The translations under genes and the position numbers were made by a program. DNA of 14,190 nucleotides from a virus (Duplodnaviria; Heunggongvirae; Uroviricota; Caudoviricetes): the IMG/VR virus record IMGVR_UViG_2778261619_000008. One strand, 5' to 3'. Shown piece after piece: positions 1 to 8,917 of this stretch. Position 1 is the first letter of the stretch; the number at the start of each line of letters is the position of its first letter. The notes under the pieces are model-generated. The model had not been told where the DNA came from and made no database searches. It saw only the letters and a program-made list of their open reading frames with translations.

Positions 1-1236
1 CTACGATAACCGCGCATTCAACATGGCTATCTGTTCGTCGTTCATGTCATCAATCCACATACCGTAAATTTCATACACCATCTGCGCAGTTTCATGCCCC
101 ATTTGGCTGGCTATAAATGCCGGGTTCGCTCCTGCCGTCAACAGCCAGCAGGCAAAAGTATGCCGCGTATGGTACGGATTACGGCGGCGAATACCAGCAC
201 GTTTTACTGCTGCATTCCACCTTGCCCCCAAACTGCTTACCGAGTAATAAGGTTTTTGTTTTCCGTTACACACCCTGGGCATGAAAACAAAATGCAGTTT
301 TTGCTTTTCGGTTCTGCCGTACTCCCGATGATAAAAGGTGATTTCGCTTTTGCGATGATGCCCGGTCAGTTTGTATTGCTCCTTCAGTGCTTCAAGAGCA
401 GGCTGCAGTAGTGTTACTGTTCGGATCCCGGCATTTGTTTTTGGGGGACCGAACATATCAAGTATCGTCAGGTTTCTTCTGACATTCACTATTCCCTTTT
501 CGAGATCCACATCCTCCCACGCCAGAGCTGCCAGTTCCCCGTGACGAAGTCCTGAGTAAACGGCAAATTTCCACAAGTTCTGGCTCTGTCCTTTTTCACT
601 TTCCATTAATGCATTGAATTCTGTTTTAGATAACGGATCAGGCTTTATTCTGTTTCGCTGTAATTTTTTTACTCCTTCAAATGGTTTAGTTGATATAAAT
701 CCCGACTGATACGCAAAACGCAACAGCGAACAGAGCAGGGCGATATAGTTATCAACTGTGCGCACGGTTCTTCCTTTTTTGTTGGATCTTGGATTATCCA
801 GGTAAAGCGTTTCTCCATGCAGCAGTTCATTCCGGTAGTTTAAGATATCGCTATAACGAATATGTGATATCGGGGTACTTTCACAAATTATTATTCTGAG
901 TGTTTTTAATTGTGATTTCGTTTTCTTCATTGTGTTTGTTGTTAACTCTGTCTCTTTAATTTTTGTCCAGATATCACAAAGCTCTCCGAACGTTTTTATG
1001 ACTCTCGTTGTCACCATTTTTGCCCCAGTGCTGGACTGGGGAAAACGTCTTAAATACTCAAATTCACCGGAGTTTATTTCATGAACTATCAGCGATCTTA
1101 AATTTCCGGCCTTTTTAATATTACTGTTTGTAATCTCCCAGCCTTTTAATGTTTCCCGACATCGTTTTCCTCGAAACATGAACCAGATGCGAATGTATCT
1201 ACCTCTAATCTCGACACCTGTTGGTAATTTAGACAT
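1..1236 (-). CDS. intR: Prophage tyrosine integrase (Rac IntR-like), 411 aa
   Basis: Full-length ORF from the track (MSKLPTGVEIRGRYIRIWF... with C-terminal ...HTRHTFACWLL... catalytic region typical of tyrosine recombinases). Matches my memory of Rac IntR. The stop codon is the first three bases of the window. Confidence 0.93.
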   Translation of the reverse strand: MSKLPTGVEIRGRYIRIWFMFRGKRCRETLKGWEITNSNIKKAGNLRSLIVHEINSGEFEYLRRFPQSSTGAKMVTTRVIKTFGELCDIWTKIKETELTTNTMKKTKSQLKTLRIIICESTPISHIRYSDILNYRNELLHGETLYLDNPRSNKKGRTVRTVDNYIALLCSLLRFAYQSGFISTKPFEGVKKLQRNRIKPDPLSKTEFNALMESEKGQSQNLWKFAVYSGLRHGELAALAWEDVDLEKGIVNVRRNLTILDMFGPPKTNAGIRTVTLLQPALEALKEQYKLTGHHRKSEITFYHREYGRTEKQKLHFVFMPRVCNGKQKPYYSVSSLGARWNAAVKRAGIRRRNPYHTRHTFACWLLTAGANPAFIASQMGHETAQMVYEIYGMWIDDMNDEQIAMLNARLS

Positions 1237-1237
1237 A

Positions 1238-1453
1238 TCATGAGTCTTTGATAAACTGATTTATCTTTGGATAGTTGTACCAGATAATCCCTCGTTTGCT
1301 GTCTGGCTTACCTAAAGGAGATACTCGTTTGAAGTGGAAGCCCTCCACCCAACAGTTCTGGCGGTATGCTTCAATTTGTCTGGCCCCCAGACCAGTGCGA
1401 AGCATCAGGCCGTATTCAACCATCCACTCTTCATTAAAGATTACTTGTGCCAT
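1238..1453 (-). CDS. xisR: Excisionase-like protein (YdaQ/XisR-like), 71 aa
   Basis: Track ORF 1238..1477 begins at a TTG. The internal ATG at 1453 is preceded by a GAGGTG Shine-Dalgarno 5 nt upstream and gives [18 protein letters not shown]..., which I recognise as Rac YdaQ. It lies immediately downstream of int in the classic int-xis arrangement. Confidence 0.82.
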
Positions 1454-1531
1454 CGCATCACCTCTGGCAGGCGCCAATGTTAGACTGAAATTGACGCCCG
1501 ATGTTGATTATTAATAATCAGCTATGAAGTT

Positions 1532-1741
1532 TTAATTTGAATACAATGCAATTCTCGAGGACTGAAGTTTCTCGCAATTAAAATTTATCAGTTTTACTTT
1601 CTGCTCTCTGGAAACGCCTGCTTCTTTTTTACCTGAGAGCATTTTTTCGCATTCTGATTTCGTTAGTTTAGATTTTGAATATCTTGTCCAGTTAGTAGGA
1701 GTGCCACCTTCCTTTTCAATAGTGGCGGTAATTTTATACAT
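1532..1741 (-). CDS. ydaC: Small prophage protein YdaC (RcbA-like), 69 aa
   Basis: Within track ORF 1532..1813. The ATG at 1741 (MYKITATIEKEGG...) is preceded by GGAGGTG 3 nt upstream. It overlaps the 3' end of ralR by 8 nt. Confidence 0.8.
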   Translation of the reverse strand: MYKITATIEKEGGTPTNWTRYSKSKLTKSECEKMLSGKKEAGVSREQKVKLINFNCEKLQSSRIALYSN

Positions 1742-1928
1742 GAACACCTCCATTATTATTTCCAGTGGTTCGTTTATTCCATCTTTCGAGTGCTTCTTTT
1801 TCACTTCCACCATAACCGGTTCGGGATTCGCATCCGTTACACTTCGCTCGGTAATATCCTGAAATGGCTTTCACCGTTACTGATGGACAACCACAAAATG
1901 GACATGGTTTAACATTGTCATATCTCAT
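1734..1928 (-). CDS. ralR: RalR (Lar) restriction-alleviation protein / type I toxin DNase, 64 aa
   Basis: Within track ORF 1734..1967. The ATG at 1928 gives MRYDNVKPCPFCGCPSVTVKAISGYYRAKCNGCESRTGYGG..., a Cys-rich zinc-ribbon-like protein matching my memory of Rac RalR. An in-frame ATG 4 codons upstream (1940) is an alternative start. Confidence 0.82.
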   Translation of the reverse strand: MRYDNVKPCPFCGCPSVTVKAISGYYRAKCNGCESRTGYGGSEKEALERWNKRTTGNNNGGVHV

Positions 1929-1984
1929 AATTTTTCTCATAAAAAATATTTCAAGTTGGCGGTGCATTACACCGCCAGGCTGAA

Positions 1985-2794
1985 TTATTCCTCTGAATTA
2001 TCGATTACACTGTATTCCCCGGTTAATACAGAGGAATCTGCAGGATCGATTGTCAGTGGTTCCTTTTCATCCATTGATACTGCACGCTGGATCTCAATTG
2101 ATACGGGCAGATATTTGAACAGGCGACGAATAGCCGTTTTCTTTGCCATTTCTTCCCAGTGAGTTACCCACGGCCCGTTATTACCAGCTTTACTCAGGCT
2201 GCGCACCAGCTCAATCTGTTTGCGCGTCATAACTTCAAACTGAGTACCTCCGTCTTTCAGTCTTGCGACAGCATAGACGTGGGTAACCGGGGCATCTTCG
2301 TTTTCTCCCGGGCGGTGTATTAACTTTTCATCAAGGCCAAATTCGAAGCTAAACTCGTCACCTTCACGGACAACACGGGCTGACAGGCTGGCGATTTGAC
2401 CAGAACGGCGAGCCAGATCAATCATGCCGCGATAGCCAATGATTAGCTGAACGTTCTTTTTACCGCTCTTTTCGTTTTTATTACCAAAAGGCAGTAAATA
2501 TGCATGACCGAGGGCGCTACCTGGCTCAAGTCCGAGCTGTGAACACTGTACGATCGCACTGACAAAACTCATAGTGTCACAGTTTCCTAACGCCGGAACT
2601 TTACGAATTTCTGTGGTGGCGATACGGATCATACGTTCAGCCGTCATATGGCGTGGAAGAGCTGCTGCCAGTTGCTCTTTCATTGATGGCTGGTTAATAA
2701 AACTAATCACGTCGCTATTTTTAACTGCTGCTGGTGCACGGTTTCCCTGAGTTTTTTGCAGATCGGCTTTTGCGATTGGTGGTTGCTTAGTCAT
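1985..2794 (-). CDS. recT: RecT single-strand annealing protein, 269 aa
   Basis: Track ORF 1985..2851. The ATG at 2794 ([16 protein letters not shown]...) has an AAGGA Shine-Dalgarno 8 nt upstream. Sequence and length match Rac RecT. The start lies inside the last 8 nt of recE. Confidence 0.93.
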
Positions 2795-5387
2795 TTGCAT
2801 ATTCCTTAGCCCAGCGGGGCAGTGATAATGTCTTAATAGCTGGCCATTCATCGGTATTCAGGCAGTCAGACAGGGTTCGCAGATTGCGGTGATATTCCTG
2901 TTGACCTGCCAGTTTTGCTTCTTCGCCCATCATGAAAATTTCAACCGGATAACGTCCGCATTCAATAGTTGTGCTGGCAACCAGAAAAACGAAAGTTGGC
3001 TGCACTCCAAACTGTGCTTCATAACCGTCACTGTAGAATGCATCCTGAACGTGATAGCGGTAGTCGTAATAAGCGGTTTTGAATCGTTGAATATCCGCCG
3101 TAGTTTTCACGTCCATGATCCAGTGAAATTCAGGGATAATTTTGTCCGGACGGCACCGACACAAAATTCCTGTTTCAGGATCTTCCCAGTAAATTGATGA
3201 TTCAGCGTGTCCGGCGCTTTCAACAAGCCATTGCCCCAGCGGCAAAGCCATAACGCTTTGATACATGAGTTCAATTTTCCGGCCTTCTTCCGCAGTGATA
3301 ACCGTTTTTCCTGTGCTTGCGCATTCCATCAGAAACGCTTTCTCTTCTTCTTTTCCGGCGTTTGTACGGCGGTTAAATTCAGGTGCTACGATAAAGCGGT
3401 TACTGAATTCTTCCGGTTCAAGTACCCGGCAGTGGAAAGCAGTTCCTAAATCGAGCGTTTTTGTCTTTGTGGTGTCCACGGGGGCATTTTTACGCCACAA
3501 ATATAGTGCCGGAGTATCAGCAATGTCATCGAGCTGAGACTTACTGATACCGGGACCCGCGTGGTAATTCTCATTCGAAATTCCGTAATAAATACCTGGC
3601 TCTATGTCTTCTACGATTACGGGATCTGCGACTTCGCCAGTTTCATCACTGCAATCGCGATGGGGATCGCTGCCAGCATTCTCATTGTGCGGATGTTCAG
3701 CGCCTTCCATTTCCTCCGGATCATTTTCCTTAGCTTCAACCTGACTCTCTTCATCGAATGTTTCCTGGTATGTTGCGTCGCCCATCACCGCACCACAGTC
3801 AGGGCAGTTATCCCCGCCAGTCTGGCCGCAGGCATTGCAGGCTATTTCCGGTTCCTGTTGCACTACTGGCTCAGGTTGATTCATATCTGGGCTGGTTTTT
3901 TCCGTTTCTGGCTGGTTCTGGTACACACAATCGCGAGTCTGGATCCCCTTTACCCATTTCGGATCGTTCGGGTCGCTAATTCCGTCAACAAATTCACCAC
4001 GTGATGCAGCAAGCAATTTATCGGCATCGACAGGATTTTTTGATGGAATGTTTTTCCGGGCTTCATGGAGTTCTGCCCGCAGTTCCTGATATTTCGCATC
4101 AACAGAATTTACCTGTGACTGAGCATCCAGCGGCTGCGTGTCCTGATGATGTTCAGTTGCGTCCGGTTCCATTGTTTCAGCCTCTCCCTGTTCAACTGCC
4201 GTTGTTCCAGATGGTTGCGGTTTTTCTTCATCATCCTGTTTTCCTTCTTCTGTTACTCGCTGCGGCATCGGGGCAGAGGAGCGACCGCAGGCAATATCCA
4301 CGATTTCCGGATCAGGGTTGGCATGATCGGTTTCAGTCAGTACTTTGTTCAGATATTCAGTGACGTGCGCGGGGATGACCTCGATCCCAATTGGTGCTTC
4401 TTTTACGGACGCAACCACGATGGCGCGGGAATAATCCAGCCCGCCAGGCATGGTGATGAATTTGTCGCGGAAAACAGAAAAGGGCGGTTTATTTTCAGCG
4501 ATAATTTCCTCAATGCGTTTAGCGTGTGCCGGATGAAGGTTATAGATGTCCAGATCCATTGAACGGGCCAGTACGCCAGTGGCTACGTCGCGCGCCAGTG
4601 ACGTCAGATCGTGTACGAAACCTTCGCCGCGATCGGTGAGGTTTCCGCCGCCAGCATTAGCACCGGAAGCCGTGCGAGTGATGTGTGAAACACGATTACC
4701 CTTCATCCACTCTTTTGTCAGCAGTCCTCGATCGGTGTAGTCAGCGTTCAGGTATGCTTCGAAAAAAGCAGTTATCAGTCCCAGGTTTGAATTACCAGGA
4801 TTAGGGAAAACTTTGTCAGTGTCACGAACCAGTTTGTGGAGTTCGCGAATTTCCAGCGGGTCGAGCAGGCTGGTTTTGTGGGAAACAGCCAGGGCAGTAA
4901 CAGCCGGTAGTTCTTCAGCCCGAGCAATGTGTAATGCCTGGAGTCCGTCGCGTGAAACGTGCGTTACCGGTTTTTCGCTGCCGTGTTGAGCAAGCCAACG
5001 AATGGGCAGTTCCTGGCCAGAAATTGGGAGTAGCATATTCTCCTCAATCTCAGTCATGTCTTCGCCGTTGACGTTGGTATTGCCTTGATAGTGAGCGTTG
5101 TCTGGTGCTGCTCCCGGTTTTAGTTCCCATGTCATGGAGTCTTTGCTGAGTTGATAGCGTTCACTCCAGGTAAAATCGATCTCACCTTCAGCGGGCAGGT
5201 CATTAACGACAGGAAAATTCGTGGCAACAGCTTTAAAATAGCTGCTCAGTTTTTTACCTGACTTAACGATCAGGTAGTCCAGAGTGGCACAGGTCGATTC
5301 AAAATCGTTGCTTGCCCACAGGACGACGTCAGGTTCACCGGATGATTTTTTCGCTTTCCGTAACAGGAAGAGTGGTTTTGTGCTCAT
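2787..5387 (-). CDS. recE: RecE exonuclease VIII (5'-3' dsDNA exonuclease), 866 aa
   Basis: 866-aa track ORF ([24 protein letters not shown]...) with an acidic low-complexity middle and a C-terminal nuclease domain. Matches Rac RecE in sequence and length. A GAGG Shine-Dalgarno lies 9 nt upstream. Confidence 0.94.
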
Positions 5388-5488
5388 TGTTTTTTAACCT
5401 CAACTCAGATTAAAATTCGTTTTGTTCAGTGAATGATCTTGCCGGATACACACTGTTCATAGCCTGCGCCATACGCAGGCTATTTCTT

Positions 5489-5764
5489 TCAGATTTCACC
5501 TTTTAATTTCATTGCAATTAGAGTTGCCAGAAATTCGGCTTTTTTTTCTGCGGGCAGATTCTTTCCGATATGCACCAGGCACATTTTTTTGACACCTTCA
5601 TCAAGTGTTTTTACGTTGCCTGATGGACCATCGATATCAACCACAGTGAATGGGGTTTCTTTATTTTCTGTTTTAATTACGTAGCCAATGCGCTTTCCTT
5701 CCAGATTCACCTCGTGAACAATGTCATCGGTAGTTACAACAGTGGCTTCATAATTGGTAATCAT
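5489..5764 (-). CDS. racC: RacC prophage protein, 91 aa
   Basis: Within track ORF 5489..5812. The ATG at 5764 (MITNYEATVVTTDDIVHEVN...) is preceded by an AGGAG Shine-Dalgarno. Matches my memory of RacC. Confidence 0.83.
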   Translation of the reverse strand: MITNYEATVVTTDDIVHEVNLEGKRIGYVIKTENKETPFTVVDIDGPSGNVKTLDEGVKKMCLVHIGKNLPAEKKAEFLATLIAMKLKGEI

Positions 5765-5838
5765 GTTTTTCTCCTTAATTAAGGTTGAGCGAATACCTGC
5801 CATTTCTGGCATAAATTCAGTTTCGAATAGTCAATTAA

Positions 5839-6009
5839 TTAAAGTTCATGTGCCATCTGGTCTTTTTCGGCACAAGCTTCACTGCAATATTTTCTCGGTT
5901 CGTCTTTTGATAAAATCCCGTGCATGAAGTGAAGCATTCTTTCAATAGCTTTGCTTTCTTCAACGTCTTTTTTGCAAAGGTGGTAAGCACATTTTATTTT
6001 CTTAGTCAT
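5839..6009 (-). CDS. ydaE: YdaE-like small zinc-binding protein, 56 aa
   Basis: Not in the ORF track (below 60 aa); translated by hand from the minus strand: [56 protein letters not shown]. It has a CxxHxC ... CxxxC arrangement. Its ATG shares one base with the kilR stop codon (TGATG). Confidence 0.75.
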   Translation of the reverse strand: MTKKIKCAYHLCKKDVEESKAIERMLHFMHGILSKDEPRKYCSEACAEKDQMAHEL

Positions 6010-6230
6010 CACCATGACTCCGCCTTTACAGGTAAACCATCACGACCGAGGAAGACTTTAATCATGCGGTCAGTAATGCATGTTTTTGTGGTCAGGTTAC
6101 GAATATATAGTTTTCGCTTTTTAATATTGTTTGCCGAGGCAATATATGTCCGGCCTTCATGAAGAACATAATCGCCAGGAGTCACACACTGACGTGGTAT
6201 TTCATCAGTTCCGAAGTGATGTGCAATCAT
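6009..6230 (-). CDS. kilR: KilR cell-division inhibitor, 73 aa
   Basis: Within track ORF 6009..6242. The ATG at 6230 ([26 protein letters not shown]...) has a GGAG Shine-Dalgarno 5 nt upstream. Matches Rac KilR. Confidence 0.83.
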
Positions 6231-6671
6231 AATTATCTCCATTTTTACAAATGAACTTTGTTGATGCGGTGCCTGGTGCCTCCAGGTGACTGCAACCAGT
6301 TAACAATTACAGTCGGCTTTCCCACCCAAACCAATAAGGACTAACATGACTTTTAACTGTGCCACGTGCGCTTAGCCGCATTCACCGCATCACAAAATTC
6401 ACTTTAAAAAGGGCGGACATCAGCCGAACTTCAAGAAAAAAACTGATGCCGCCAGGACTACACACAGCAATGTCGTTATTTACAACCGGAGGCGCACTCC
6501 CACCATTTAAATTTAACAGACAAGACCGACTCTTTATGGATATCGGAAATGCGCCTTCGTGTTGTGCCCGGTTTTATTTCACCACCTCCGGGCTTCGGTG
6601 GTCTCGGCTATACCCCTACAGCGAGAGCTTGTGTTAACATTTCAATACCCTTACAGTTGAGAGTTATTGAT

Positions 6672-7160
6672 ATGTTGGATGTATTTACTCCATTGTTGAA
6701 ACTTTTTGCTAACGAGCCACTCGAAAGACTTATGTATACGATTATCATTTTTGGTCTCACTCTCTGGCTGATACCGAAAGAGTTTACTGTCGCATTCAAT
6801 GCTTATACTGAAATACCTTGGCTCTTTCAGATTATCGTTTTTGCCTTTTCTTTCGTGGTCGCCATTTCCTTCTCAAGATTGCGAGCACATATTCAAAAGC
6901 ATTATTCATTACTACCAGAGCAACGAGTATTGCTTCGTTTATCTGAGAAAGAAATCGCTGTATTTAAAGATTTCCTTAAAACAGGAAATCTTATTATCAC
7001 TTCTCCTTGCCGTAACCCGGTTATGAAAAAATTAGAACGGAAGGGCATCATTCAACATCAGAGTGATAGCGCAAACTGTTCTTATTATCTCGTCACCGAA
7101 AAATACTCCCATTTTATGAAGTTATTCTGGAACAGCAGGAGTAGACGTTTTAATCGTTAG
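6672..7160 (+). CDS. sieB: SieB superinfection-exclusion protein B (membrane protein), 162 aa
   Basis: Track ORF 6549..7160. The ATG at 6672 (MLDVFTPLLKLFANEPLERLMYTIIIFGLTLWLIPKEF...) has a purine-rich (GAGAG) stretch upstream and gives hydrophobic N-terminal helices consistent with SieB. The upstream extension in the track is probably non-coding. Confidence 0.78.
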   Translation: MLDVFTPLLKLFANEPLERLMYTIIIFGLTLWLIPKEFTVAFNAYTEIPWLFQIIVFAFSFVVAISFSRLRAHIQKHYSLLPEQRVLLRLSEKEIAVFKDFLKTGNLIITSPCRNPVMKKLERKGIIQHQSDSANCSYYLVTEKYSHFMKLFWNSRSRRFNR

Positions 7161-7312
7161 CTTACTGTGTGCTTCTCCAACCATCGGCGCGCACCAGTTT
7201 CGGTTTTAAATGTTTTGCTTTTGGTATACGTCATGGCAGTGAACGTTCCATCCTGGTTGGGGAACACGCCGCACACCAGGGATTCGTTGTTGCCGAGGTC
7301 GATTTTTTGCAT
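7157..7312 (-). CDS. ydaF: YdaF-like small prophage protein, 51 aa
   Basis: Below the track cut-off; hand-translated: MQKIDLGNNESLVCGVFPNQDGTFTAMTYTKSKTFKTETGARRWLEKHTVS. Its stop codon overlaps the sieB stop on the opposite strand (convergent). Confidence 0.7.
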   Translation of the reverse strand: MQKIDLGNNESLVCGVFPNQDGTFTAMTYTKSKTFKTETGARRWLEKHTVS

Positions 7313-7322
7313 TTTGCGAATC

Positions 7323-7457
7323 TCACATCTTGTTGCTACGTATAGCGACTTCTGCCTGCCAGAGATCCCAGTCGTTGCTGCGTAAAGCCTGCACAGCCTG
7401 GTTGTAAGTGATACCGCAACAATCCATCAAATACTGAACTACTTCGTAATGCACCAT
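7323..7457 (-). CDS. ydaG: YdaG-like small prophage protein, 44 aa
   Basis: Below the track cut-off; hand-translated: MVHYEVVQYLMDCCGITYNQAVQALRSNDWDLWQAEVAIRSNKM. An AAGGGGA Shine-Dalgarno-like stretch lies upstream. It is 10 nt upstream of ydaF, suggesting a two-gene transcription unit. Confidence 0.7.
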   Translation of the reverse strand: MVHYEVVQYLMDCCGITYNQAVQALRSNDWDLWQAEVAIRSNKM

Positions 7458-7624
7458 CTTATCTATCCCCTTAACGCCGGGTGGCGGAACTAACTGCTGC
7501 ACTGCAAAATTTGAATCCCGCCGTCATGTTCATACGCCTCGGGCTGGCTACTTAACCCCTGACCACTGCCTGGTAACTCGAAGTATTGCCCGGCGTTCTG
7601 TGGGGCGGGGTGGGTTGGTAGGTA

Positions 7625-7672
7625 TATAATGTACTTTGTGTTCATCATTGTAAAGTACTTTAAGTACATTTT
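7625..7672. promoter_or_regulatory. Operator-like dyads downstream of racR / upstream of ydaG (lambda OL analogue)
   Basis: AATGTACTT (7628-7636) and its reverse complement AAGTACATT (7662-7670) flank the palindrome AAAGTACTTT (7652-7661). These share the TGTACT half-site with the racR-ydaS intergenic region. A perfect TATAAT lies at 7625-7630 on the plus strand, and a candidate TTTACA -35 lies on the minus strand. Confidence 0.45.
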
Positions 7673-7744
7673 GTGTATAAAAAAATGAGACGGGATAAAG
7701 TGAAGCACAAACCCGGAGGGGGACGCTACCGGATTTATGCTGGT

Positions 7745-8164
7745 TTAAGAGGCTTTTTGTTTTTTCTTTCGTGCTAACTCTTCGTAAATTGCATTGTACT
7801 TCTGTTTTTTCTCCTCAAGAGTTTTTAAAAGTTCATCTGTCTCACTGTCAGGGAGCTCGTCCAGAAGGTCAATGATGATTTTTTGTCTTGGATTTAACTC
7901 CTGATAGAAACGTATCTGTCCACTTTCTTCTGTATCCTCTCCCAAAAGATAGGTTGGTGTTGTTCCAATGAGTGTTGCTAATTCCCTTAATTTCTCTCGG
8001 CGAGGAATTGTTTCACCATTAAACCATTTGCTAACCGCTTTTGGTGTTAATTTCATTCGACGGGCAATTTCTGCCTGCCTTCCATGTTGTTCATAACCAG
8101 CGTTTTCACAGGCTAGCGCAAGCCTACTGGCGAACTCTTTACGCGCTTTATCTTCATGAACCAT
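7745..8164 (-). CDS. racR: RacR prophage repressor (CI-like, XRE-type HTH), 139 aa
   Basis: Track ORF MVHEDKARKEFASRLALACENAGYEQHGRQAEIARRMKLTPKAVSKWFNGETIP... has an N-terminal helix-turn-helix. It is divergent from the Cro-like gene. No Shine-Dalgarno precedes the ATG, and an in-frame stop lies 18 codons upstream, so the start cannot be much further 5'. Confidence 0.78.
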   Translation of the reverse strand: MVHEDKARKEFASRLALACENAGYEQHGRQAEIARRMKLTPKAVSKWFNGETIPRREKLRELATLIGTTPTYLLGEDTEESGQIRFYQELNPRQKIIIDLLDELPDSETDELLKTLEEKKQKYNAIYEELARKKKQKAS

Positions 8165-8243
8165 AAGTTCAATGATATTCGCTCTTGAATGTACTGTCAG
8201 TTCTGTTATAGCATGTACTCAAAGTTCACATTGTGAGGATGAT
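8165..8243. promoter_or_regulatory. Divergent racR / ydaS promoter-operator region (lambda OR analogue)
   Basis: 79-bp gap between divergent repressor and Cro-like genes. Two copies of ATGTACT (8189-8195, 8213-8219). A minus-strand -35 CTGACA (8195-8200), 17-bp spacer and -10 TATCAT (8172-8177) would place the transcription start at about the racR ATG (leaderless, like lambda cI from PRM). A possible plus-strand TTGAAT/TATAGC pair would serve ydaS. Confidence 0.55.
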
Positions 8244-8498
8244 ATGAACCAGAAAACACTTGAAGATGTAATCAAAACTGTTCGCGTTTCTGTTGTGGCC
8301 GACGTTTGTGGTGTCAGCCAAAGAGCAATCTACAAATGGATGGATAACGGAAAATTGCCTCGCACAGAATATACCGGCGAAACAAATTACGCTGAAAAAA
8401 TCGCTCATGCATCAAACGGATTATTTTCTGCCGATGCAATTTTAACTATTGGCAGAAATAAAACTACTACGAAAAAGCTGATGGGAGTTGATTCATGA
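8244..8498 (+). CDS. ydaS: YdaS-like Cro-type HTH regulator, 84 aa
   Basis: Track ORF 8172..8498. I chose the ATG at 8244 (GAGGA Shine-Dalgarno upstream) because the longer form would overlap the racR start. The ...GVSQRAIYKWMDNGKLPR... motif is typical of the YdaS/Cro-like family. Its stop overlaps the ydaT start (ATGA). Confidence 0.7.
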   Translation: MNQKTLEDVIKTVRVSVVADVCGVSQRAIYKWMDNGKLPRTEYTGETNYAEKIAHASNGLFSADAILTIGRNKTTTKKLMGVDS

Positions 8499-8917
8499 AA
8501 ATCAAGCATGAGCACATCGAATCAGTGTTGTTAGCCCTGGCAGCCGAAAAAGGGCAGGCGTGGGTCGCTAACGCAATTACTGAAGAATATCTGCACCAGG
8601 GGGGCGGCGAATTGCCCCTGGTACCAGGCAAGGACTGGAACAATCAGCAGAATATCTATCATCGTTGGTTGAAAGGTGAAACGAATGCGCAAAGGGAAAA
8701 AATTCAGAAACTGATCCCTGCGGTTCTGGCAATTCTTCCTCGCGAGCTGCGTCACCGACTCTGCATCTTCGATACCTTGGAACGCCGTGCATTACTGGCG
8801 GCACAGGATGCACTGAGTACGGCAATTGATGCGCATGATGATGCAGTCCAGGCCGTTTACCGTAAAGCACATTTCAGCGGCGGCGGTTCTCCTAGCGATT
8901 CTGTCGTAGTGCATTGA
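8495..8917 (+). CDS. ydaT: YdaT-like protein (CII-like regulator, reported toxic on overexpression), 140 aa
   Basis: 140-aa track ORF (MKIKHEHIESVLLALAAEKGQAWV...), translationally coupled to ydaS. Length and position match Rac ydaT. Confidence 0.78.
   Translation: MKIKHEHIESVLLALAAEKGQAWVANAITEEYLHQGGGELPLVPGKDWNNQQNIYHRWLKGETNAQREKIQKLIPAVLAILPRELRHRLCIFDTLERRALLAAQDALSTAIDAHDDAVQAVYRKAHFSGGGSPSDSVVVH

Follow-up and report, generated by a model that had tools for sequence, protein, structure and literature searches.

A probable HK022-type immunity cassette in place of racR-ydaS in a Rac prophage

Positions 7621-8488 of the viral sequence IMGVR_UViG_2778261619_000008, a stretch of 14,190 nucleotides that was analyzed at full length and is called the window below, very probably constitute a self-contained lambdoid immunity cassette of the phage HK022 type. 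The cassette comprises a left operator region (OL), a repressor gene, a right operator region (OR), and a cro gene, and it takes the place of the racR-ydaS genes of Escherichia coli K-12 in a Rac prophage at ttcA. Sequences, homology, spacing, conservation, and purifying selection on the repressor are the direct results of this analysis. The design as such, with divergent PR and PRM promoters under three operators, another operator set at PL, one operator across the repressor ATG, and a leaderless repressor mRNA, is already documented for lambda, HK022, 933W, K-12 Rac, and CP-933P, and the locus is an ordinary, well-preserved instance of it. Most of the features tested for the HK022 type were found; two, the S24 domain of the repressor and the accessory operators, were not.

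An exchanged cassette between ydaG and ydaT

The prophage that makes up the window is of the Rac type, lies integrated beside ttcA, and has 99.9% identity to many E. coli chromosomes over the tested 1.85 kb. In a nucleotide comparison with K-12 Rac, positions 1-7620 are 99.87% identical, homology is absent from 7621-8488, and from 8489 onward identity is 92%. Judged from this comparison, an 868-bp cassette (7621-8488) is exchanged for the K-12 racR-ydaS cassette between ydaG and ydaT of Rac. It contains the gene of a 139-amino-acid helix-turn-helix (HTH) protein, the repressor (7745-8164, minus strand), and extends into the divergent gene of an 84-amino-acid HTH protein of the Cro type (8244-8498, plus strand). 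The left edge (7620/7621) coincides with the predicted start of the leftward early promoter PL and the right edge (8488/8489) with a YdaT-box, so that promoters, operators, repressor, and cro appear to move together as one exchangeable unit. Nucleotide homology to HK022 spans 8004-8414 and 7625-7683. Of 5426 complete E. coli genomes, 1047 (roughly 19%) carry the cassette, and a literature search for an HK022-type cassette in Rac returned nothing relevant and no paper describing one.

The original prediction had named the two divergent genes racR and ydaS-like. A K-12-type RacR/YdaS switch, to which the published RacR operators, RacR essentiality, and the leaderless promoter PracR3 would apply directly, is in keeping with the position (Rac at ttcA, flanks 99.9% and 92% identical to K-12), with the layout, and with a YdaT that is 94% identical to K-12 YdaT. 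The proteins do not bear these names out: the repressor matches RacR in only 12 of 33 residues, within the HTH, and the Cro-like protein matches YdaS in only 6 of 18, both being homologues of HK022 CI and Cro instead. The RacR motif WTAGGC-N3-GCCTAW, searched with up to 2 mismatches, occurs 0 times in the window versus 5 times in the K-12 locus, and homology to K-12 is interrupted across precisely this region. The RacR/YdaS identity is thus refuted at the sequence level and we consider it extremely improbable. The literature on RacR essentiality and operators, which had been invoked for this locus, is not directly transferable to a repressor other than RacR, though the toxic neighbors ydaT and kilR are both present in the window as in K-12. 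K-12 results on RacR essentiality, operators, and cross-talk should accordingly not be carried over to the E. coli genomes that harbor the cassette.

Predicted operators with HK022-like sequence and spacing

A TGTACT/AGTACA half-site repeated between the divergent genes and beyond the 3' end of the repressor gene had been the starting observation, and it is confirmed: the hexamer stands at 7630, 7663 (minus strand), 8190, and 8214. The whole window contains 11 copies of TGTACT or its complement against 4.75 expected, a number reached in 2 of 200 shuffles; another copy at 7795, inside the repressor coding region, is probably due to chance. Although the hexamers are real, the isolated half-site is not the true site. 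The hexamers are the halves of five 15-bp palindromes of the form TGWACY-N3-RGTWCA (6-N3-6), including one over the repressor ATG that had been missed.

Candidate operator OR3 (8157-8171, TGAACCATAAGTTCA) is centered on the repressor start codon (8162-8164) and is identical to OR3 and OR1 of HK022. OR2 (8190-8204, TGTACTGTCAGTTCT) lies within the spacer of the predicted rightward early promoter PR and covers the -35 element of a predicted repressor maintenance (PRM-like) promoter, and OR1 (8214-8228, TGTACTCAAAGTTCA) is located over the predicted PR start. Beyond the repressor gene, OL1 (7630-7644, TGTACTTTGTGTTCA) overlaps spacer and -10 element of PL at a position that is occupied in all relatives, whereas OL2 (7654-7668, AGTACTTTAAGTACA) adjoins the PL -35 element, its center 24 bp from that of OL1. 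Relative to the repressor ATG, the OR sites are centered at 0, -33, and -57. The OL pair is found 77-115 bp past the repressor stop (7745), making the formerly given distance of '100-120 bp' only approximately right.

As a pattern taken from the window's own sites would be circular, a weight matrix (PWM) for scanning the window was derived solely from HK022, using the five operators that its GenBank record annotates. The five sites are the top scorers, ranging from 13.2 to 20.0 bits (OR3 20.0, OL2 17.2, OR1 17.1, OR2 14.6, OL1 13.2), and the next best match in 14 kb reaches 9.8 bits. At a threshold of 13 bits, 5 sites were observed versus 0.3 expected, and none of 300 shuffles produced more than 3. 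Short hexamers of AT-rich composition are common, and the copy at 7795 might be taken as an example of chance matches in AT-rich intergenic DNA; yet all five sites are retrieved with a matrix that stems from a different phage, and their spacing is base-pair-exact in six other genomes. Chance matching is refuted statistically and retains practically no credibility as an explanation. The proposed arrangement along the lines of lambda OL and OR holds, in that both clusters are homologous to HK022 OR and OL in sequence and spacing and that PL and PR fall on elements annotated in HK022.

The relatives compared were HK022, Klebsiella phage 2b, a database "phage" record that contains an identical cassette, a variant of metagenomic origin (repressor 89% identical), two Salmonella prophages whose repressors are short (62-65% identical), and a Raoultella prophage whose long repressor bears an S24 domain. 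OR centers at 0, -33, and -57 and the 24-bp OL pair are base-pair-exact in the window and in all of these relatives. In some of them, a gap of 0.9-2.4 kb of other genes between repressor and OL (1.7-2.4 kb in the Klebsiella and Raoultella loci) leaves the 24-bp OL spacing intact. In the Salmonella enterica prophages, a HigB-toxin/HTH-antitoxin (HigB/HigA) pair is inserted between the short repressor gene and the OL pair (locus L007, 3553-4220; locus L008, 3588-4255).

Constraint on the sites was analyzed in an alignment of six E. coli-type cassette variants, in which synonymous divergence (dS) of the repressor gene from the window reaches up to 0.6-1.0. Variable positions account for 5 of 75 in operators versus 60 of 141 in other intergenic DNA (Fisher p = 8e-9). 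OR1, OR2, and OR3 each contain 0 variable positions out of 15 (0/45), despite dS of 0.6-1.0 in the adjacent gene. What variation the operators show is mostly located in or beside the central spacer, and in OL1 it is restricted to the site center, the spacer, and the initial base of the right half-site. This constraint is the pattern that would be expected of functional protein-binding sites.

Side by side with HK022 (GenBank X16093), the window shares the 15-bp operator pattern, with OR3 identical and OR2, OR1, and OL differing at few bases, the distances of the OR centers from the cI ATG, and two OL sites spaced by 24 bp around a TTTACA -35 element. Homology extends to the PR, PL, and PRM elements, the recognition helices are near-identical, and identity between the Cro proteins amounts to 62%. 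The two differ in their flanks, which are those of Rac here, in the presence of YdaT instead of a lambda-type CII, in the lack of nun, in the lack of the HK022 sites OL3 and OFR, and in the repressor C-terminus: HK022 CI (235 amino acids by coding-sequence coordinates, 208 according to the record label) has an S24 autocleavage domain, whereas the window repressor has 139 residues and a helical tail. HK022 CI binds cooperatively to adjacent sites in OR and OL, and it loops OL to OR (PMC8053113). In 933W/phi24B (GenBank HM208303), similarities extend to the N-terminal repressor domain (50% identical), operators of 15 bp built on GTAC/GTTC half-sites, an OR3 positioned on the cI ATG, and a pRM start annotated one base before that ATG; unlike the window, its sites score less on the HK022 matrix (12 bits), are spaced by 25 and 31 bp, and are accompanied by an S24 domain.

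Lambda has the same divergent PR/PRM pair under three operators, a second operator set at PL beyond the repressor gene, and a repressor mRNA starting from the AUG, which is predicted for the window. Lambda differs by its 17-bp sites, three OL sites, and a RecA-cleavable domain, compared with 15 bp, two OL sites, and no such domain here. Moreover, OR2 is placed at -42 in lambda and at -33 in the window, where it covers the PRM -35 element, so that activation by sigma contact is unlikely.

K-12 Rac, with its racR-ydaS-ydaT region (PMC9638921, PMC11879457), agrees with the window in prophage, slot, and neighbors, in 6-N3-6 palindromes of which one is positioned over the repressor ATG, in a YdaT-box at the ydaT start, and in a leaderless repressor promoter, mapped in K-12 and predicted here. 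Repressor and Cro-like proteins are unrelated, as are the operator motifs. A comparison of operator spacing with K-12 Rac, which had been suggested as a check, shows a difference, K-12 sites being 25-26 bp apart versus 24 and 33 bp in the window. In K-12 MG1655 (locus L002), two RacR-type palindromes, ATAGGTAATGCCTAA (8630-8644) and ATAGGCTATGCCTAA (8655-8669), are located 25 bp apart and 97-136 bp past the racR stop. By position, these palindromes beyond racR and upstream of ydaG would be an OL-like pair in a layout that mirrors the one in the window; the RacR operator paper of 2022 does not mention ydaG (PMC9638921).

The paaR2-ydaS-ydaT region of CP-933P in E. coli O157:H7 (PMC8630535) likewise combines a small repressor lacking an S24 domain with OR and OL operator sets, a PL promoter, YdaT as CII equivalent, and a leaderless mRNA, there identified by 5'-RACE and N-terminal sequencing and here predicted. 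Its operators differ, being 18-bp repeats with GTTTAGTAA. The paaA2-parE2 pair behind paaR2 parallels HigB/HigA of the Salmonella relatives, whereas the window has no toxin-antitoxin pair at that place.

A repressor with a conserved helical tail

The repressor consists of an HK022-CI-like HTH domain (about residues 1-75, Pfam HTH_3 match), a linker, and a C-terminal helical tail. Identity is 46% with HK022 CI (residues 4-102) and 50% with 933W-type CI (residues 1-73), and the recognition helix (helix 3) reads TPKAVSKWFNG compared with TPKAISKWFNG in HK022. Among solved structures, sequence comparison pointed to distant HTH domains only, the best being P22 C2 (E = 0.006). Pfam Peptidase_S24 has no match in the repressor, which also contains no Ala-Gly cleavage site. 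In the alignment, the S24 domain and its SAGPG motif are replaced by a helical tail of about 50 residues; in the AlphaFold model (pLDDT 83), the tail (residues 92-138) forms a short helix (92-103) followed by a long one (106-138). A Foldseek search of the model against the PDB essentially matched the HTH domain only. Full-length matches to small phage repressors that are targeted by antirepressors (5d4z, 9iaq, 9sf2, SinR) were weak, with TM values of about 0.4, and were not relied on.

Close relatives that share the DNA-binding head carry the S24 domain, which points to a domain swap. A different view of this protein would be that of a CI truncated by deletion within a decayed relic cassette, in which the palindromes are fossils without regulatory role. 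Rac is often called cryptic, and the S24 domain of the closest long relatives is indeed missing. The ratio of nonsynonymous to synonymous divergence (dN/dS), however, is 0.05-0.07 for the whole repressor and 0.015-0.03 in the tail; the tail is kept in the Salmonella proteins and is covered by a family of its own, PHROG 5736 (window 7745-7910, the C-terminal third). Furthermore, the cassette is spread over nearly a fifth of complete E. coli genomes and its operators are invariant beside saturated synonymous change. With this low dN/dS, the conservation in Salmonella, and a separate PHROG family, the helical tail is not debris but under strong purifying selection, and decay of the cassette is very unlikely.

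Taken jointly, head, tail, and sites may describe a repressor of HK022 specificity that carries a conserved helical tail instead of a LexA-like domain, that is uncleavable by RecA, and that binds OL and OR sites of HK022 geometry. We put this composite picture forward tentatively, as a possibility that is less probable than its negation. If true, a repressor resistant to RecA-mediated cleavage would be present in about a fifth of E. coli strains, cross-immunity to phages of HK022 immunity is possible, OL and OR would perhaps be looped over only about 530 bp, and switch-off, if any, would proceed via an antirepressor or another route. PHROG and Pfam scans of the remaining open reading frames of the window identified no antirepressor family, and an exact LexA box (CTGT-N8-ACAG) does not occur in the window. 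The locus offers a natural domain-swap experiment, in which one DNA-reading head and one operator geometry are combined either with an SOS-cleavable domain or with a small helical tail, and which bears on how prophages turn uninducible ("grounded") while still silencing toxic kilR and ydaT. Phage vB_EcoS-673R7, which encodes an identical repressor, was considered as an inducible phage and dismissed; its record stems from a genome-mining preprint and holds no evidence of inducibility.

The repressor ATG is the first start codon of its open frame and was also chosen by PGAP, the automated annotation of NCBI. In the protein, the HTH domain starts no later than residue 10, and every relative has Met-Val at its N-terminus. 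Annotated starts of the 151-amino-acid Salmonella repressor (L008, 3001) and the 240-amino-acid Raoultella repressor (L012, 3001) precede the ATG at the OR3 center by 45 and 12 nt; the conserved Met-Val start together with the operator geometry suggests that these two calls are too long.

Promoters, transcripts, and neighboring genes

PL was predicted by promoter scan on the minus strand (7626-7654; -35 TTTACA 7654-7649, 17-nt spacer, -10 CATTAT 7631-7626) with a start near 7619. It aligns with the annotated pL of HK022 (-35 TTTACA, -10 CATCAT), and the TTTACA -35 element is invariant in 6 relatives. PR was read from the sequence on the plus strand (8185-8212; -35 TTGAAT 8185-8190, 16-nt spacer, -10 TATAGC 8207-8212) and aligns with the annotated pR of HK022 (-35 TTGACT, -10 CATAAT). 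Its -10 element is preceded by TGT (8204-8206), forming an extended -10, and its start is predicted near 8219, inside OR1; PR falls below the promoter-scan criteria because the final T of the -10 element is missing. The PRM-like promoter, again from the promoter scan, lies on the minus strand (8172-8200), with a -35 element CTGACA (8200-8195) inside OR2, a 17-nt spacer, and a -10 element TATCAT (8177-8172) that ends 7 nt before the ATG at 8164.

That the repressor gene lacks a Shine-Dalgarno sequence and is preceded by a good minus-strand promoter had been noted from the start and stands: no Shine-Dalgarno or GGAG-like sequence precedes the ATG, the upstream sequence reading gaatatcattgaactt-ATG, and the promoter matches 10 of 12 consensus positions. 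Across eight aligned sequences, the PRM -10 element is TATCAT, TATAAT, TATACT, TATGAT, or TATAGT, with invariant T, A, and final T, and in the seven HK022-type sequences among them the distance to the ATG is always 7 nt; the homologous HK022 element is CTGATA-17-TATAGT-7-ATG. The phi24B GenBank record (933W-type cI) has the pRM start on the base that directly precedes the cI ATG. The lambda cI transcript is the classic leaderless repressor mRNA. Leaderless repressor mRNAs have been mapped for K-12 RacR (PMC9638921) and for PaaR2 of CP-933P (PMC8630535). A leaderless repressor mRNA from the PRM-like promoter is therefore a plausible and the best prediction for the window, as had been proposed, given the conserved TAnnnT -10 element and 7-nt distance.

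Alternatively, the repressor mRNA might be mainly leadered, for example transcribed from a YdaT-activated promoter resembling lambda PRE in or beyond the Cro-type gene and translated without a Shine-Dalgarno sequence, with the -10 element next to the ATG being incidental. A perfect YdaT-box, TTGATTCATGAAAATCAA, is located at 8488-8505 (plus strand) over the ydaT start codon (8495). It contains an exact TTGATT-N6-AATCAA and thereby matches the CP-933P consensus exactly, whereas in the K-12 box the left half is ATGATT (PMC11879457). This motif was footprinted for YdaT of K-12 and CP-933P, and in K-12 the box-bound protein activates a reverse promoter within ydaS and raises racR expression (PMC11879457). 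Also, K-12 racR has three promoters, of which one only is leaderless (PMC9638921), and OR2 over the predicted -35 element would weaken PRM in the lysogen. On the other hand, TAnnnT and the exact 7-nt spacing are kept in relatives that differ at neighboring bases, the start annotated for phi24B pRM is one base before the ATG, and the promoter scan detected no consensus-like minus-strand promoter in 8244-8600, and no reverse promoter was identified in the Cro-type gene. Both routes can coexist, as in lambda. We consider a mainly leadered mRNA unlikely, although with appreciably more in its favor than the other alternatives weighed here. A second, leadered transcript used under some conditions in addition to the leaderless one, like that of lambda PRE, is likely in view of the perfect YdaT-box on the ydaT start and of the reverse promoter that YdaT activates inside K-12 ydaS. 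By analogy, the box suggests a CII-like, YdaT-dependent extra route to repressor expression.

An RNA hairpin (7704-7741, minus strand) directly follows the repressor stop codon. It has a folding energy of -19.4 kcal/mol (z = -5.0), 0 of 200 shuffles were equally stable, and it folds on the repressor-sense strand only; among relatives, its stem is conserved and its loop variable. This element is probably a terminator or 3' stabilizer of the repressor transcript that, placed ahead of OL, would insulate it from the PL operon.

From these elements we infer binding, order of occupancy, transcription starts, autoregulation, and prophage induction for the HK022-type cassette as follows. Dimers of the 139-residue repressor would bind the 15-bp palindromes. 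Filling of OR1 and OR2, which are 24 bp apart, would switch off PR and with it the cro-like gene, ydaT, and the replication genes; filling of OL1 and OL2, likewise 24 bp apart, would switch off PL and with it ydaG, ydaF, and onward kilR and recET. The PRM-like promoter would yield the leaderless repressor mRNA. Since OR2 covers its -35 element and OR3 lies on its start point and on the ATG, negative autoregulation is expected, and the repressor would restrain its own synthesis, in contrast to lambda CI, which activates from -42. The Cro homologue would use the same sites, and the YdaT-box would provide a CII-like route to a leadered repressor transcript. This scheme makes predictions at base-pair level for five operators and three promoters.

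Several observations weigh against it. With the PRM -35 element under OR2, the question arises how a lysogen sustains repressor synthesis. The predicted PR -10 element (TATAGC) is weak and is not kept in one variant. The repressor is devoid of the C-terminal domain that confers cooperativity on classical CI proteins, which makes cooperative pairing and looping an assumption. Of the accessory HK022 sites, OL3 (1209-1223 of HK022 locus L006, 53 bp from OL2), which is also present in the Klebsiella and Raoultella relatives, and OFR (163-177, downstream of cro) are absent from the window: the PWM scan of 7669-8156 returned nothing of at least 6 bits, and near 8442-8468 scores were only 6.5-6.7 bits. 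Finally, the HK022 record itself labels its sites as 'potential' binding sites.

HK022 Cro (62% identity, E = 1e-34) and phi24B Cro (47%) are homologues of the Cro-type regulator, whose gene is preceded by a Shine-Dalgarno sequence GAGGA at 8235-8239. This gene is followed by ydaT (8495-8917, plus strand), with the replication genes farther to the right. To the left of the cassette are ydaG (7323-7457, minus strand), ydaF (7157-7312, minus strand), and sieB (6672-7160, plus strand). The start of ydaG, the first gene of the PL operon, is uncertain, as the PGAP annotation of some genomes has a 59-residue protein that starts with the GTG at 7502 (7323-7502, minus strand), whereas K-12 has a 44-residue YdaG corresponding to the ATG at 7457. 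Folding of the PL leader (7455-7620) indicated an unremarkable structure (z = -1.5).

In an Rfam scan of the whole window (E up to 1), 7458-8243 yielded no match to any RNA family, nut- and put-like ones included; elsewhere, the matches are limited to three. Two lie on the minus strand between kilR and sieB below their gathering scores, an STnc100-like match (6223-6409, 35.5 bits, gathering score 47) and a DicF-like match (6411-6466, 39 bits, gathering score 48), the latter coinciding with the small RNA KilS as annotated in K-12 (L002 7406-7503, equivalent to window 6406-6503). The third is a full-length match to the antitoxin small RNA RalA of the RalR/RalA type I toxin-antitoxin system (1557-1735, plus strand, 225 bits).

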